Source of the DNA: an uncultured SAR86 cluster bacterium
GTDB taxonomy: Bacteria > Pseudomonadota > Gammaproteobacteria > Magnimaribacterales > D2472
Direction of reading: 5' to 3'
Length of the DNA stretch: 64,000 nucleotides
Assembly (NCBI GenBank): GCA_964276145.1
Contig: CAXYDN010000007.1
Span: 74,411-138,410, forward strand
Of the stretch, positions 4,191 through 52,322 are shown one piece after another. How positions within the stretch are numbered: position 1 is the first letter of the stretch; every line of letters begins with the position of its first letter. The position numbers and the translations under genes were made by a program. The notes beneath the pieces are model-generated. The model had not been told where the DNA came from. It ran no database searches and worked only from the letters and a program-made list of their open reading frames with translations.

Positions 4191-4759
4191 ATATTGGCAT
4201 TATTGACTGCGGAGGTGCTAACTTGAATTCAATTTATTATTCTTTTAAAAGAATTAATATTAATGCATTTATATCAAGTTCACCATCAGAGCTAGATGGC
4301 ATGGATGCATACATATTACCTGGAGTTGGTTCTGCTGGAATAGTTATGAATAAATTAAAAGAAAATAATTTAATTAATTTGATTAAGGAAACCAAAAAAC
4401 CAACACTAGGCATATGTATAGGTATGCAAATACTATTTGATTACTCTGAAGAGGATAATACCCAATGTCTTGGGCTGATTAACGGAAGTGTTAAAAAATT
4501 TCAACCTAATAATGACATTAAAGTCCCTCAAATGGGTTGGAATCATGTTAGTTCAGATATTGATAGTCTCAATGGATATTACTATTTTGCTAATAGCTAT
4601 TTTACCAATAACAATGATTACGCAATTGGTCATAGTTACTATGGTCAAAAATTTAATTCAATCGTCAAGAAAGATAACTTTCTTGGATGCCAGTTTCATC
4701 CCGAAAAGTCATCAGATATTGGTGAAAAATTTATAAAGAATTTTATCAATACAATATGA
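4187..4759 (+). CDS. hisH: imidazole glycerol phosphate synthase, glutamine amidotransferase subunit
   Basis: Has the class-I GATase motifs LPGVGS, GICIGMQ (catalytic Cys) and CQFHPEKS. Its ATG overlaps the upstream stop (ATGA). Confidence 0.9.
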   Translation: MNIGIIDCGGANLNSIYYSFKRININAFISSSPSELDGMDAYILPGVGSAGIVMNKLKENNLINLIKETKKPTLGICIGMQILFDYSEEDNTQCLGLINGSVKKFQPNNDIKVPQMGWNHVSSDIDSLNGYYYFANSYFTNNNDYAIGHSYYGQKFNSIVKKDNFLGCQFHPEKSSDIGEKFIKNFINTI

Positions 4760-5475
4760 AAATAATGCCAGCTATCGATCTACTGGATGGTAAATGCGTT
4801 AGGTTACTAAAGGGAGATTATTCAAAGGTCTCTACTTACAATGATAATCCTATTGAACAAGTTGAAGAATTTGAAAAAGCAGGCTTTACCTATATTCATT
4901 TAATAGATCTTAATGCTGCTAAATCTGGTGGTAATGAAAATATAGAGATCATTAAAGAAATCGCAAGTATAAAAAATATAAAGGTTCAGGTTGGTGGCGG
5001 AATTCGAGATATAAATAAAATTAAGAGATTATTTTCCTACAACGTTGATAGAGTAATTGTTGGTACAGCTGCTATTACTAATAATATTTTTAAGTTGCAA
5101 CTTAAAAATAATTTTCCAATAGAAAAAGTAATATATGGATTAGATTTTAAGATTATTGATGGGGCCCCTCTCCTATCAGTTAACGGTTGGACAGAAAATA
5201 CAAATATAAATTTATTTGATTATATTAAAGAAAATTATTGGATAAAAAATATTTTAGCAACTGATATTTCTCTGGATGGAACTCTTAATGGACCAAACAT
5301 TGATATATATAAACAAATTTTAACTAATAAAAATTTGAACTTAATTGCCTCGGGGGGTATAGGCTCTATTAATGATATAAGCAAACTTCAATTAATTAAA
5401 AGTCAAGAATGTGTTGTAGGTAAAGCAATATATGAAGGTAAAATTTCTTTATTGGAGCTTGGAAATGCTAACTAA
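4756..5475 (+). CDS. hisA: ProFAR isomerase
   Basis: Motifs [22 protein letters not shown] and ASGGI; position in the his operon. Confidence 0.9.
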
Positions 5476-29765: not shown

Positions 29766-29841
29766 TGATTAATTGGGTTGCTTATGTGCGATAACAATAA
29801 CATATATAATCTAAATAAATCCTAATGTATACTTCAAAAAT

Positions 29842-30012
29842 ATGACAATTTTAGATCAAAAATTACTAGATATTTTAGTATGTCCTGTTTCAAAAAAACC
29901 TCTTGAGTATGATAAAGAGGCTAATGAACTGATTTCAACTGAAGCTGGTCTTGCTTATCCCGTCAAAGATGGAATACCTGTAATGCTTCCAGAAGAAGCT
30001 CGCAAACTTTAA
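29842..30012 (+). CDS. ycaR: Trm112/YcaR-family small protein (56 aa; below the ORF-track size cut-off)
   Basis: My own translation is [56 protein letters not shown]. It is collinear with E. coli YcaR (LLEIIACPVC...LAFPLRDGIPVLLETEAR). Confidence 0.7.
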
Positions 30013-30017
30013 AAAAA

Positions 30018-30094
30018 GCGCCCGTAGCTCAGCTGGATAGAGTACTTGGCTACGAACCAAGGGGTCGGGAGTTCGAATCTCTCCGGGCGCGCCA
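30018..30094 (+). tRNA. tRNA-Arg (anticodon ACG), CCA encoded
   Basis: Manual cloverleaf: acceptor GCGCCCG/CGGGCGC, anticodon stem CTTGG/CCAAG, loop CT-ACG-AA, T-loop TTCGAAT. It starts 5 nt after the ycaR-like stop. Confidence 0.9.
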
Positions 30095-30100
30095 TTCTCT

Positions 30101-48716: not shown

Positions 48717-49103
48717 TTAATTGATAGGTTCTATTGGACCATTGAATGAAGCCCATTCTGCAAAACCACCAAGGTTTAGAACTTTTTTATAACCATTTTT
48801 AATTAGCTTATGTCCAACAAGGGCTGATCTTACCCCTACTGCACAATAAACTAAAATAGTTATATCTTCATTGTCATTCAGATGATTCTTAATTAGAGAA
48901 TGATCAAAATTAGCATCAATGATGCTTTTGGGTATATTGACTGCATTTTTAATTAATCCTGTTGCTTCTATTTCACAAGTCTCTCGAACATCTATTATTA
49001 AAGTATTTGTAGTGGTGATAAGATTATTTGCTTCTTCAAAAGATAGTCTTGGAACGCAGTCATTGGCCTCTTGAAGCAACTTAGTCATCTCTATTTCATT
49101 CAT
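48717..49103 (-). CDS. single-domain rhodanese (sulfurtransferase)
   Basis: 128 aa; IDVRE..E, the active-site loop YCAVGVRS (Cys-X5-Arg type), and GG...W. Confidence 0.8.
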   Translation of the reverse strand: MNEIEMTKLLQEANDCVPRLSFEEANNLITTTNTLIIDVRETCEIEATGLIKNAVNIPKSIIDANFDHSLIKNHLNDNEDITILVYCAVGVRSALVGHKLIKNGYKKVLNLGGFAEWASFNGPIEPIN

Positions 49104-49105
49104 AT

Positions 49106-49987
49106 CTATGCTTTGGTGTTTACAGAATTAACATAACCTTTTTTATTTGAATTAGAAAGATAAATACCTAATAAAACAACGAAGCAACCAATAACAATTG
49201 TTGATGTAATAATCTCACCTAAAAATATCGCACCCCAAATAATTCCAAAAACAGGAAGAAAATATGCAACTGTTGAAGTTCTAACTGCGCCAATCTTATC
49301 TATCAATCTCACATAACCAATGAAACCAATTCCTGTAGATACTGCTCCTAACCAAATTGCTGAAGTTATTGCTTGGATAGAGGGCATAACTTCTGGCAGA
49401 TAGAAAACACTTACAGGCAGCATGAGAATAGCGCTAAATATAATAGACCATCCTATCAAAACCATTTTATTTGTTTTAACAGAATTTCTTTGTATATAAA
49501 CAGTTGAAAAAGAATAGAAAAAAGCAGCAAGCAAAGCTGAAAGACTAGATATTAATGATGTTTCTGAATTTTGAGGATTAACTAGAATAAATACTCCTAT
49601 AAAACCAATTAATAGACCGCATAACTGCTTTAAAGTGACATCTTCTCCTATCCATATATATGCAATCATCATTGTATTAAAAGCTGTGGTTGCATTTAAT
49701 ATAGCCAGAACATTTGAATCAGCTCCATAACTAGCAAATGAAAATAGTGTAAACGGGATAGCATTATTCATTACGGCAAGTACCAAAACCTGTTTCCATA
49801 TTGGTTTTAACAAATGAATATATTTATTTCTTAATAGAATTGGTAAAAAGATACATGAGGCAATTATTAATCTGGTATTAACTAGAGCAATTGGACCAAA
49901 TTCTGGAGTTGCAACTTTTATAAACATAAAGGCACTGCCCCAAAGGGCACCTAAAAAAGTTAATAAAATCCAGTATCTAATTTCCAT
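49106..49987 (-). CDS. EamA/DMT-superfamily transporter (10 TM)
   Basis: 293-aa polytopic protein with the duplicated EamA-domain architecture. It lies 2 nt upstream of the rhodanese gene. Confidence 0.8.
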   Translation of the reverse strand: MEIRYWILLTFLGALWGSAFMFIKVATPEFGPIALVNTRLIIASCIFLPILLRNKYIHLLKPIWKQVLVLAVMNNAIPFTLFSFASYGADSNVLAILNATTAFNTMMIAYIWIGEDVTLKQLCGLLIGFIGVFILVNPQNSETSLISSLSALLAAFFYSFSTVYIQRNSVKTNKMVLIGWSIIFSAILMLPVSVFYLPEVMPSIQAITSAIWLGAVSTGIGFIGYVRLIDKIGAVRTSTVAYFLPVFGIIWGAIFLGEIITSTIVIGCFVVLLGIYLSNSNKKGYVNSVNTKA

Positions 49988-49998
49988 ATTAATAAGAT

Positions 49999-50028
49999 AA
50001 AAAAACCCCCAAGTAAACTTGGGGGTTT
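49999..50028 (-). terminator. strong rho-independent terminator (or attenuator) about 10 nt upstream of the eamA start
   Basis: The minus strand reads AAACCCCCAAG-TTTA-CTTGGGGGTTT followed by further T residues (TTTTTTTATC in total after the G-run). Confidence 0.75.
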
Positions 50029-50271
50029 AAGAAATCTAGTTTAATTGCAGTAGCAACTCTGAACTAGTCGAAAACTTAAAACTTACCTCTTGTCAAAAGG
50101 TAGATCCTCCGTTTCCTGTTATTAAATAAATACTAATAGGATCACCTCCATTGTTCAGGGTAATAATAAAATGAATGCCAGTCCCCTTAAAAAACTTGCA
50201 AACAAGACATCTTCATAAATTATATACACTCTATAAATGAAATAAAGTATTTTTTTGGGATAAAAAAATAA
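50029..50271 (-). ncRNA. structured non-coding segment: 3' UTR of the SOS-controlled ORF, a leader of eamA, or an sRNA (undetermined)
   Basis: No ORF longer than 15 aa on either strand. There is an imperfect ~10-bp long-range hairpin GGAGGTGATCC (rc of 50139-50149) / GGATCTACCTT (rc of 50097-50107). A second hairpin is CTAGTT..AACTAG (50044-50075). The terminator follows. Confidence 0.35.
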
Positions 50272-50530: not shown

Positions 50531-51106
50531 TTAATCGTCATGAACGGGATAAAACCTTCTATCTTTAAGCATATTGAACATAATCATTAACCATATTACA
50601 AATGTCATTGCACCGAATACATCTCCTATGAAAAATCTAGCTATAACAATTGCATTGATATCAACATTATTCATTAAACCCAATACAAGATTAGTGAAAA
50701 TAGCATTGAATAATGCTGATATTATTATCACTAATATAAGAAATTTATAATTAGCAAAATTAATTTTCTTCAGGATTGAATAAGAGAAACTAGAAGCTCG
50801 TGACCATTTCAAGATTTCTACAGCAACCACAACTGAGGCTAACGAAAAAATGCTAGCAAAACCCCAGTACTGAAGATATTGATCACCGTATATCAAAGTT
50901 GGGCCAGTTATTTCAGCTAAATATAATGCTGGAAGAGATCGCGTGCCAAAAAAGCAATAAAAAACAACCCTACAACCATGTGGCAAGTAGACAAGACTAC
51001 CAACCCAACCCTTATCAAGGGTTTGAAACGTTATATAAGACCATAAAGCATATACAAGCATTGCAGCAACATAAGTAGTTAGAGTTACTTGCATGAAGTA
51101 TTTCAT
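50531..51106 (-). CDS. orphan integral membrane protein (about 5-6 TM)
   Basis: 191-aa hydrophobic ORF lying 21 nt downstream of the wHTH gene. I recognise no family. Confidence 0.55.
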   Translation of the reverse strand: MKYFMQVTLTTYVAAMLVYALWSYITFQTLDKGWVGSLVYLPHGCRVVFYCFFGTRSLPALYLAEITGPTLIYGDQYLQYWGFASIFSLASVVVAVEILKWSRASSFSYSILKKINFANYKFLILVIIISALFNAIFTNLVLGLMNNVDINAIVIARFFIGDVFGAMTFVIWLMIMFNMLKDRRFYPVHDD

Positions 51107-51127: not shown

Positions 51128-51421
51128 CTAAACAGCAATCAAGTCTAAAAATACCTCTCTTCTATCTGCGTTAGATTGAATAAGTTTGACCATATGATCA
51201 TCTTCAAAGTTTTTAATTGCCTTGTAAACAGTGGATCTAGAAAAACCAGAAGATGCGATCACATCAGTAATATTACATTTACCACATGAATGAATTTTTG
51301 AGGCAATTGTATAATAAATTTTTTTCTCAGTTTCATTGTATGAGACAAGATTTAAATCTTTATCGATGTTATTAAGCATTTCTAATATGCTTGCTAATTG
51401 TTGTAAGTATTTTTTAGACAT
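51128..51421 (-). CDS. small winged-helix (MarR-like) DNA-binding protein, 97 aa
   Basis: The ITDVIASSGFSRSTVYKAIKNFEDDHMVKL..S..DRRE pattern resembles the recognition helix plus wing of MarR-type wHTH. It is shorter than canonical MarR. Confidence 0.5.
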   Translation of the reverse strand: MSKKYLQQLASILEMLNNIDKDLNLVSYNETEKKIYYTIASKIHSCGKCNITDVIASSGFSRSTVYKAIKNFEDDHMVKLIQSNADRREVFLDLIAV

Positions 51422-51478: not shown

Positions 51479-51568
51479 TGGCGGAGAGACGGGGATTCGA
51501 ACCCCGGAACCAGTTACCCAGTTACTACCTTTCCAAGGTAGCGCAATCGACCACTCTGCCATCTCTCC
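51479..51568 (-). tRNA. tRNA-Ser (anticodon GGA), long variable arm, CCA encoded
   Basis: The reverse complement folds with acceptor GGAGAGA/TCTCTCC, anticodon stem CTACC/GGTAG, loop TT-GGA-AA and T-loop TTCGAAT. Length is 90 nt. Confidence 0.9.
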
Positions 51569-51602: not shown

Positions 51603-52322
51603 TTATTGATTAAATACCCTAAAGTTTTTAAAAAAGAATGTTCTCATTGATGACCTAATTGGATTAATATCAATACCTCCTCTTCTTAAAAACCTTCCAC
51701 AGACTTCTATATCAAAACCGAAATATTTTTTTTCTATGTTAAGAAATATCTCTTCAATACATTGTTCATGGAATTCTCCCTTATCTTTAAAAGATTTTAG
51801 ATACCTCTGTAGCCATTTAAGATCAATTTTTGCATTTGTATAAACATAAATCATTGCGAAATCAGGCTGAGATGTGACCGGACAGATTGATCTAAAACCA
51901 TCAAAGCGAATAGGATGATTTGGTTTGGAAAACTCTCTTGATGTTTTATTTAGATTTAATGAATTTGGTTCGCAGTAGAATTTTTTAACAAACTTAATAC
52001 TTACTGAAGACTTTGTTACTTTATTGATATCTTTTTGAATTTTTAAAAGTACATCTTTTTCGTTTGCAAAAGTTTTTTTATAGTAAGAGTTTAAATAAAG
52101 CTTTAAGGATTTTGATTCAACAATATTTATAGATGATGATGGTATCTTAATCTCCATCACTTTTAACATAGGATTTTTGTTTGAATCAAGATAACTAAAC
52201 TCATAAGCGTTCCAAAAATCAACACCGAAACTTTTTGAAATTTTGTTTCTTGGTATTGGATCAAGTATCTTAAAACCTGTTGGTTTATTAGTATTAGTTT
52301 TGCCAAGATATTTTGTTTTCAT
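51603..52322 (-). CDS. queF: NADPH-dependent 7-cyano-7-deazaguanine (preQ0) reductase, bimodular type
   Basis: QueF motif ESKSLKLYLNSY, catalytic-Cys region ICPVTSQPD, FHEQC and RRGGIDINP. Confidence 0.85.
   Translation of the reverse strand: MKTKYLGKTNTNKPTGFKILDPIPRNKISKSFGVDFWNAYEFSYLDSNKNPMLKVMEIKIPSSSINIVESKSLKLYLNSYYKKTFANEKDVLLKIQKDINKVTKSSVSIKFVKKFYCEPNSLNLNKTSREFSKPNHPIRFDGFRSICPVTSQPDFAMIYVYTNAKIDLKWLQRYLKSFKDKGEFHEQCIEEIFLNIEKKYFGFDIEVCGRFLRRGGIDINPIRSSMRTFFFKNFRVFNQ

Follow-up and report, generated by a model that had tools for sequence, protein, structure and literature searches.

In an uncultured SAR86 cluster bacterium (contig CAXYDN010000007.1), the transporter gene eamA is preceded by a gap that lies at 49988–50271, minus strand, of the 64,000-nucleotide (nt) stretch of DNA analysed here, which we refer to as the window. 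On its other side the gap is bounded by an open reading frame (ORF) of 69 amino acids (50481–50272). The evidence described below makes us confident that this gap encodes a real and conserved structured RNA that is independently promoted and terminated, specific to SAR86 and fixed upstream of eamA. The RNA is a new family of a known general kind and is absent from Rfam. A 291-nt stretch folds better than 200 of 200 shuffled versions (z = −3.4). An earlier note, made from the letters of the window, had described the gap as a structured RNA region with a long-range helix (a), a hairpin (b) and a terminator (c) abutting eamA, and all three elements are kept in relatives.

To collect related loci, we used EamA orthologues of 49–90% identity, which place the source organism in SAR86, and found a homologue of the gap sequence directly 5′ of eamA in all 62 SAR86 loci obtained in this way and in none of 18 non-SAR86 eamA loci. 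Metagenome contigs were searched with a pattern taken from the RNA only (GGAGGTGRTCYYATY-N33-39-TTYTGACA), which matched at least 120 marine loci; among the matches listed, the element is present in 119 of 120. In total, the element occurs in at least 181 loci (62 SAR86 genomes and at least 119 marine metagenome contigs), so that the conservation of sequence and structure, with covariation, for which the earlier note had proposed a check, is borne out. Downstream of the RNA, eamA follows on the same strand in each of the 158 listed loci that have sufficient flanking sequence, and a rhodanese gene accompanies eamA in most loci. The gene 5′ of the RNA varies: it is mostly the small ORF, in about 10 loci the gene for alanine dehydrogenase (ald) and in a few loci neither.

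Conservation across relatives begins at a TATAAT hexamer rather than at the stop codon of the upstream ORF. This hexamer, the only promoter-like element recognized in the earlier note, forms the conserved −10 box of a promoter that belongs to the RNA itself: of 139 distinct upstream sequences, 131 have TATAAT and 8 have TATACT at this place, always 10–12 nt ahead of an invariant GUC. At the −35 position, 75 of the 139 sequences have CTTTAT, CTTTAA or CTTTTA. At the 3′ end, the terminator stem (50028–50003) has 11 pairs, 6 of them G–C, and a loop of 4, followed by a run of 7 T residues that ends at 49999. As the earlier note had described, this run stops close to the ATG of eamA at 49987, with 11 bases between them; eamA itself has no Shine–Dalgarno sequence. 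All relatives have the terminator in the same position although its stem comes in 16 different sequences, and it is therefore maintained by compensatory change. Judged from these signals, the RNA unit would be about 215 nt long, running roughly from 50212 to 49999 on the minus strand. The promoter and terminator that mark the discrete transcript of a small RNA (sRNA) are thus both present at the level of sequence signals.

These boundaries bear on the suggestion, made in the earlier note, that the region is a long 3′ untranslated region (UTR), or an sRNA derived from one, of the SOS-controlled transcript of the 69-amino-acid ORF. In 152 of 166 related loci, a LexA box (CTGT-N8-ACAG) does lie 5′ of the small ORF and the RNA. 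With no terminator to separate the two, transcription induced by the SOS response should continue from the ORF into the RNA. However, the invariant promoter of the RNA sits directly past the stop codon of the ORF, and loci in which alanine dehydrogenase or another gene takes the upstream place still have the RNA before eamA. Because the RNA has its own promoter and its upstream gene varies, we reject a 3′-UTR origin as the sole origin and regard this explanation as very improbable.

The structure of the core was examined with a covariance model (R1) built from 32 representatives and comprising 145 positions. R1 has exactly one match in each of 78 non-redundant sources (103–150 bits) and matches nothing else in 530 kb. 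In the 78-source alignment, 10 of the 10 pairs of hairpin P1 change on both sides, with 89.6% of cells paired. The long, irregular hairpin P3 has 12 of 17 pairs that change on both sides, and it forms in 32 of 32 representatives at −9.7 to −21 kcal/mol. The covariation score of 0.44 lies above those of all 500 shuffled alignments (0.22) and compares with at most 0.135 in slid registers. P1 and P3 therefore provide covariation-supported conserved structure of the kind expected of a riboswitch. Beyond the core, each of the 111 distinct 3′ parts is predicted to form hairpin P4, whose outer stem occurs in 37 sequence variants, and this hairpin, too, is supported by covariation. It corresponds to hairpin (b), which is real but had been placed at 50044–50075, 8 nt from its actual position at 50067–50036.

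Other parts of the core are conserved in sequence. The GUC triplet near the 5′ end and a GAC triplet are invariant in 77 distinct sequences, and RNAalifold predicts that they pair (P0), with no covariation. The GGG of the P1 loop and a CCC (50160–50158) are also invariant in the 77 sequences, and an A–U pair that flanks them is kept in 67. From this we infer a candidate pseudoknot between the P1-loop GGG and the CCC, which could add to one of the two folds described below (fold B).

Helix (a) of the earlier note, here called P2, is formed by GGAGGUGAUCC, which can pair with 50107–50096 in 11 pairs with one bulge. P2 is pairable in 95% of 847 cells, compared with 38–69% in slid registers, and RNAalifold still returns P0, P1 and P2 as the consensus when it is given the 78-sequence alignment that was fitted to P3. 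The helix therefore stands, although the account in which it was proposed missed the competing long hairpin P3. The 5′ strand of P2 is invariant, which makes compensatory change impossible in this helix; in the 3′ strand, seven pairs vary on that side alone yet stay pairable.

The strand 50108–50092, on which P2 and P0 depend, also supplies the 5′ half and the loop of P3, which makes the two folds mutually exclusive. The shared strand keeps its purine or pyrimidine class, with only A or G in column 117 and almost only C or U in columns 118 and 119, and the pairs of P1 flip freely in sequences in which the shared strand keeps its class. As this class fits both partners, we read it as the mark of selection on both folds. 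Taken at the level of sequence, the pattern makes it rather probable that the conserved core is bistable around the 11-nt, Shine–Dalgarno-like element GGAGGUGAUCC. Fold B would be a three-way junction of P0 (GUC:GAC), P1 with its GGG loop reaching the CCC, and P2, in which the Shine–Dalgarno-like GGAGGUGAUCC would be paired with GGAUCUACCUUU. In fold A, the long hairpin P3 would take the same CCUUU strand and would free both the Shine–Dalgarno-like element and the 5′ end. When no pseudoknot term enters the calculation, fold A is favoured over fold B by 6.4 ± 4.9 kcal/mol on average, and the order is reversed in 7 of 77 sequences. The positions of all of these features are listed in Table 1.

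Table 1. Features of the RNA and of the genes downstream of it (window coordinates)
Feature	Position	Strand	Basis or remark
−35-region hexamer CTTTAT	50242–50247	−	poor match to TTGACA; 17 nt 5′ of the −10
−10 hexamer TATAAT, the RNA's own promoter	50219–50224	−	start inferred near 50212
Conserved RNA core (R1)	50066–50211	−	139 bits, E = 2e-29 in the window
Invariant GUC near the 5′ end, candidate P0 strand	50206–50208	−	partner GAC at 50094–50092
P1 hairpin	50172–50204	−	loop with near-invariant AAGGGG (50188–50183)
Invariant CCCU, candidate pseudoknot partner of the P1-loop GGG	50157–50160	−	invariance
P2 5′ strand GGAGGUGAUCC, 11-nt Shine–Dalgarno-like element	50139–50149	−	helix (a) of the earlier note
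Possible 14-codon mini-ORF, AUU to the UGA in UUUUGACA	50093–50137	−	open frame, predicted
P2 3′ strand AGGAUCUACCUUU, also 5′ strand of upper P3 (switching segment)	50096–50108	−	pairing counts
P3, long irregular hairpin with invariant apical UUUUGACA	50070–50116	−	excludes P2 and P0
P4 hairpin, CUAGUU...AACUAG with inner UUGC/GCAA	50036–50067	−	hairpin (b) of the earlier note
Intrinsic terminator AAACCCCCAAG-UUUA-CUUGGGGGUUU and U run	49999–50028	−	terminator scan
eamA (EamA/DMT transporter)	49106–49987	−	Pfam EamA, E = 8e-38
Single-domain rhodanese gene, 2 nt 3′ of eamA	48717–49103	−	Pfam Rhodanese, E = 8e-15

We confirmed the 11-mer GGAGGTGATCC at 50149–50139, and this is the only exact copy in the window. 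Across relatives, its GGAGGUG, U and C are invariant; the only changes are A/G at position 8 and C/U at position 11, and both variable positions retain pairing with U and G. Such variation would be expected if the 11-mer pairs with a partner whose sequence does not change, such as the 3′ tail of 16S rRNA, GGAUCACCUCC, which is conserved in bacteria, is complementary to the 11-mer and which we take to be the same in SAR86. A 16S rRNA 3′ end was looked for in the collected loci, and no rRNA is present in them. The motifs GGAG, GAGG or AGGA occur in the 20 nt 5′ of the start in 10 of the 55 ORFs of at least 150 amino acids, and GGAGG is not enriched in the window (39 observed compared with 42 expected). 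Because Shine–Dalgarno sequences are rare in this genome, the perfect 11-mer stands out.

The terminator ends 11 nt before eamA, and the RNA would therefore form a leader that transcription of eamA and the rhodanese gene must traverse in this genome. Our best explanation, which we put forward tentatively and with something short of even confidence, is that the RNA is an orphan leader of the riboswitch or attenuator type that mostly terminates, with partial read-through. Most transcripts would stop at the terminator and yield a discrete short RNA; a fraction would read through into eamA, for which the U run would offer an A/U-rich landing site for ribosomes. A signal would shift the balance between folds B and A, and this signal may be a metabolite linked to the transporter and the rhodanese, temperature or the 30S subunit itself.

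The earlier note had argued that eamA can be expressed only by read-through. This fits the genome analysed here and about 64% of its relatives: the spacer between the terminator and the ATG is 0–30 nt long in 105 of 166 loci, this window included, which leaves no room for an eamA promoter in those loci. It is less likely to hold for another 60 of the 166 loci (about 36%; for example, L030, L044, L050, L039 and L073), which have a spacer of 70–110 nt. There, a TAAAAT or TATAAT box recurs in the same place, some 30 nt 5′ of the ATG of eamA, although the sequence on either side has diverged. This promoter-like box is probably a separate, lineage-specific eamA promoter of the long-spacer clade.

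We acknowledge that several observations weigh against a regulatory leader. The RNA is equally conserved in the 60 loci in which eamA has the promoter-like box. We found no antiterminator; the terminator stayed intact in 14 of 14 representatives when fold B was forced. Relays by which a switch in the core could reach the terminator (P3 3′ strand with P4 5′ strand, P4 3′ strand with the terminator 5′ arm, and P3 3′ strand with the terminator 5′ arm) gave duplex z values of about 0 in most lineages. The conserved single-stranded stretch and the P3 3′ strand show no significant complementarity to the eamA start region (z from −2.0 to +1.9). The 11-mer lies about 150 nt from the eamA start and so is not its ribosome binding site. 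Finally, P0, P2 and the pseudoknot depend on invariant bases and show no compensatory changes. Pairing between the GGGG of the P1 loop and the C-rich arm of the terminator reached only −6 to −11 kcal/mol (z = −0.7 to −2.4).

Part of this evidence would be explained if the RNA were an independent, trans-acting sRNA, with the unit from promoter to terminator as its functional product. The invariant and potentially single-stranded GGAGGUGRUCYUAUUAGUAUUUAU would then pair with the 16S tail or with distant mRNAs, and pairing with the tail would dock or titrate 30S subunits. The linkage to eamA would be inherited synteny, and the terminator would merely be leaky where eamA has no promoter. The RNA's own strong promoter and strong terminator speak for such an sRNA, as do the lack of an antiterminator, the apparent −10 box of eamA in 60 of 166 loci with the RNA unchanged there, the restriction of the 11-mer to changes that preserve pairing with an invariant partner such as GGAUCACCUCC, and the prominence of a perfect 11-mer in a genome poor in Shine–Dalgarno sequences. 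However, eamA is linked to the RNA in the same orientation without exception (158 of 158), whereas the gene on the upstream side differs between loci. Neither the 64-kb window outside the RNA itself nor the eamA start region was found to contain a complement of the conserved stretch; according to the prediction for fold B, the 11-mer is base-paired there; and the SAR86 16S tail is assumed to have the conserved bacterial sequence. We consider a trans-acting sRNA, including one with a 30S-docking role, rather unlikely, albeit the main alternative. A known sRNA for comparison is GcvB: like the SAR86 RNA, it measures about 200 nt, has several hairpins and a terminator, and comes from a gammaproteobacterial host, whereas the SAR86 RNA lacks the G/U-rich R1 region of GcvB and is not beside gcvA.

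A narrower proposal is that the RNA is a gated ribosome-docking device in which the 11-mer is masked in the three-way-junction fold and exposed in the P3 fold. The 30S subunit would be captured without productive initiation, and either the transcript of the leader and eamA would be protected or small subunits would be titrated or parked. A comparable element is the STAB-SD in the 5′ UTR of Bacillus thuringiensis cryIIIA, which, as reportedly described by Agaisse and Lereclus in 1996, binds 30S subunits and stabilizes the mRNA without starting translation. The sequence features of a STAB-SD-like element are present in the SAR86 RNA: the 11-mer is complementary to the assumed 16S tail and the next in-frame triplet is AUU. 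Both elements are perfect Shine–Dalgarno-like sequences far 5′ of the real start, with no canonical start codon behind them. By contrast, the SAR86 element is 11 nt long, is located inside a bistable structure and has a terminator between it and the gene, and its host is Gram-negative and rarely uses Shine–Dalgarno sequences; the likeness is one of sequence. We know of no chromosomal bacterial RNA for which the use of the anti-Shine–Dalgarno tail for gated docking has been described, and we regard the proposal as improbable.

The 11-mer could also serve translation of a short frame. An AUU (AUC in some lineages) lies 5 nt past GGAGGUG and starts a frame of 14 codons. If the RNA were a leader-peptide (ribosome-mediated) attenuator, GGAGGUG would direct translation of this mini-ORF, which begins at AUU or AUC and ends at the invariant UGA-C, and read-through and folding downstream would depend on where the ribosome stands on the 5′ strand of P3. 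In 38 of 38 distinct variants, the frame has no internal stop and always measures 50 nt from GGAGGUG through UGA, and the other two frames are stopped in 38 and 26 of them. The spacing from the Shine–Dalgarno-like element to AUU is ideal, and several changes would be synonymous (AUU/AUC, UAU/UAC, GGA/GGG/GGU and UUU/UUC). Other observations speak against this reading. There is no AUG, GUG or UUG start, no run of regulatory codons and no antiterminator of the 2:3 type. The frame lacks 3-base periodicity (entropy of 3.28, 4.69 and 3.05 at codon positions 1, 2 and 3), with the second positions most variable, and in some lineages the GGAGG has moved by one base; the encoded Gly-Gly thereby becomes Trp-Arg, which indicates that the RNA motif is conserved rather than the peptide. 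The frame past UGA is also not conserved, and the sub-threshold matches to Phe_leader come from the terminator. We consider a leader-peptide attenuator quite improbable; should the 14-codon frame be translated at all, it could matter only through the act of translation itself. The leader-peptide attenuators of pheA and trp and the uORF-coupled leaders mgtL and tnaC share with the SAR86 RNA a short frame that follows a strong Shine–Dalgarno-like sequence and overlaps a hairpin strand, and a terminator ahead of the gene, but the SAR86 RNA is without a canonical start, regulatory codons or an antiterminator.

Several specific candidates for the region around the 11-mer were rejected. A real small protein starting at AUU, although its frame is open, is made improbable by the lack of periodicity and the unconserved peptide. 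Stop-codon read-through towards the terminator was dismissed because the frame past UGA runs for 2 to 26 codons and is unconserved. A prfB-like +1 frameshift at UUU-UGA-C, judged on the sequence, would call for GGAGG at a spacing of 3 nt, but here the spacing is 7 nt, and a stop codon closes the +1 frame within 4 codons. A sponge of the CsrA/Rsm type would have to make do with 3–4 GGA motifs in the alignment, none of which is in a hairpin loop and one of which is variable. The doubt expressed in the earlier note about a 9-codon ORF (MEVILLVFI) was justified, as its ATG is replaced by CAGGAGG, AAGGAGG or ACGGAGG in relatives.

Comparison with known RNAs supports the status of the element as a new family. 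With Rfam 15, no family reaches its gathering threshold in the gap (the whole window was searched at gathering thresholds), and none was found in the region at E values up to 10, nor in five diverse homologues. The best sub-threshold scores were 26.4 bits for rimP (threshold of 47) and 21.6 and 33.9 bits for Phe_leader (threshold of 55), and the best weak match was to GcvB (RF00022; 24 bits, E = 0.004 in a 701-nt search, gathering threshold of 42). Identities as GcvB, rimP, rnk or Phe_leader were rejected, as these weak matches are driven by the terminator or by generic hairpins. In the literature on SAR86 riboswitches and sRNAs and on EamA RNA motifs, we found nothing on this element.

Returning to the leader of the riboswitch or attenuator type, the closest architectural parallel is with terminating riboswitches and with ykkC subtype 2d, an orphan class linked to EamA and TauE transporters (PMC7266159). 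Shared features are a promoter of its own, a conserved multi-helix core with invariant junction bases, a possible pseudoknot, a switching strand, an intrinsic terminator directly before the transporter gene and strict linkage to one gene family. The SAR86 RNA has no similarity to ykkC or to any Rfam family. It also departs from terminating riboswitches in that P3 is neither terminator nor antiterminator, P4 stands between the switch and the terminator, and a third of the relatives have a promoter-like box past the terminator. Given that the antiterminator is missing, we do not file the RNA as a terminator-type riboswitch despite the similar architecture. A second parallel is with the fourU and ROSE thermometers and with translational riboswitches, in which, as in fold B, GGAGG is masked by CCUUUU through G–U and A–U pairs and is unmasked by an alternative fold. 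Unlike in the thermometers, the masked element of the SAR86 RNA is not the ribosome binding site of eamA, and would at most serve the 14-codon AUU frame.

The surroundings of the RNA include features that deserve a record of their own. The gap is not, as had been claimed, the largest non-coding gap of the window: it ranks second among ORF-free gaps, behind the 335 nt at 29766–30100. The larger gap holds a tRNA at 30018–30091, and about 250 nt of it (29766–30017) carry no assigned feature. The associated claim that the gap at 49988–50271 contains no ORF longer than 15 amino acids fails when GTG and TTG starts are allowed, which yields an ORF of 24 amino acids on the minus strand and one of 21 on the plus strand. 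Upstream, a perfect LexA box, TACTGTATATACATACAGTA (50514–50495, minus strand), overlaps the −10 (50496–50491) of the 69-amino-acid ORF. The ATG of this ORF is only 9 nt past the −10, so its mRNA is nearly leaderless. The ORF is kept across SAR86, with the motifs KTLAFxYF and YYQPELLH; it had no match in Pfam or NCBIfam and, by its sequence, looks like an uncharacterized SOS gene. Farther upstream on the minus strand are a predicted membrane protein of 191 amino acids with no family match (50531–51106) and a winged-helix protein of 97 amino acids with weak TrmB/MarR matches (51128–51421), followed by a tRNA (51482–51568) and an ORF of 239 amino acids (51603–52322) that is putatively queF-like by sequence alone. 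On the downstream side, the next gene after the rhodanese gene encodes a TonB-dependent receptor.

Among the related loci, five from deeper-branching SAR86 (L020, L022, L023, L029 and L045) have alanine dehydrogenase 5′ of the RNA and lack the SOS-boxed ORF; in these, the alanine dehydrogenase gene ends 19–55 nt ahead of the −10 of the RNA. There is one copy of the element per locus, with the sole exception of L004, a 1.39-Mb contig of a metagenome-assembled genome labelled Alphaproteobacteria, the EamA of which is 88% identical to that of the window. There, the module of small ORF, RNA, eamA and rhodanese gene occurs twice (2709–2997 and 4680–4965), about 1,971 nt apart, at the end of the contig, which may reflect a genuine tandem duplication or else an overlap in the assembly. 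A phage origin of the element was also considered and rejected: three matches to the pattern were found in viral contigs, and none is a real homologue.

In the surface ocean, few heterotrophic bacteria are as abundant as those of SAR86, which have resisted routine cultivation. Their genomes are small, and regulators are few in such genomes. The RNA described here is a covariation-supported, order-wide family tied to a transporter–rhodanese pair. If it is a riboswitch, its ligand would indicate a metabolite that these cells import or export, and with it the role of the EamA–rhodanese cassette. If the 11-mer is functional, it would be relevant to the recruitment or retention of ribosomes in bacteria with few Shine–Dalgarno-led genes. 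The alignment and model make the question of function testable in vitro and in existing ocean metatranscriptomes.

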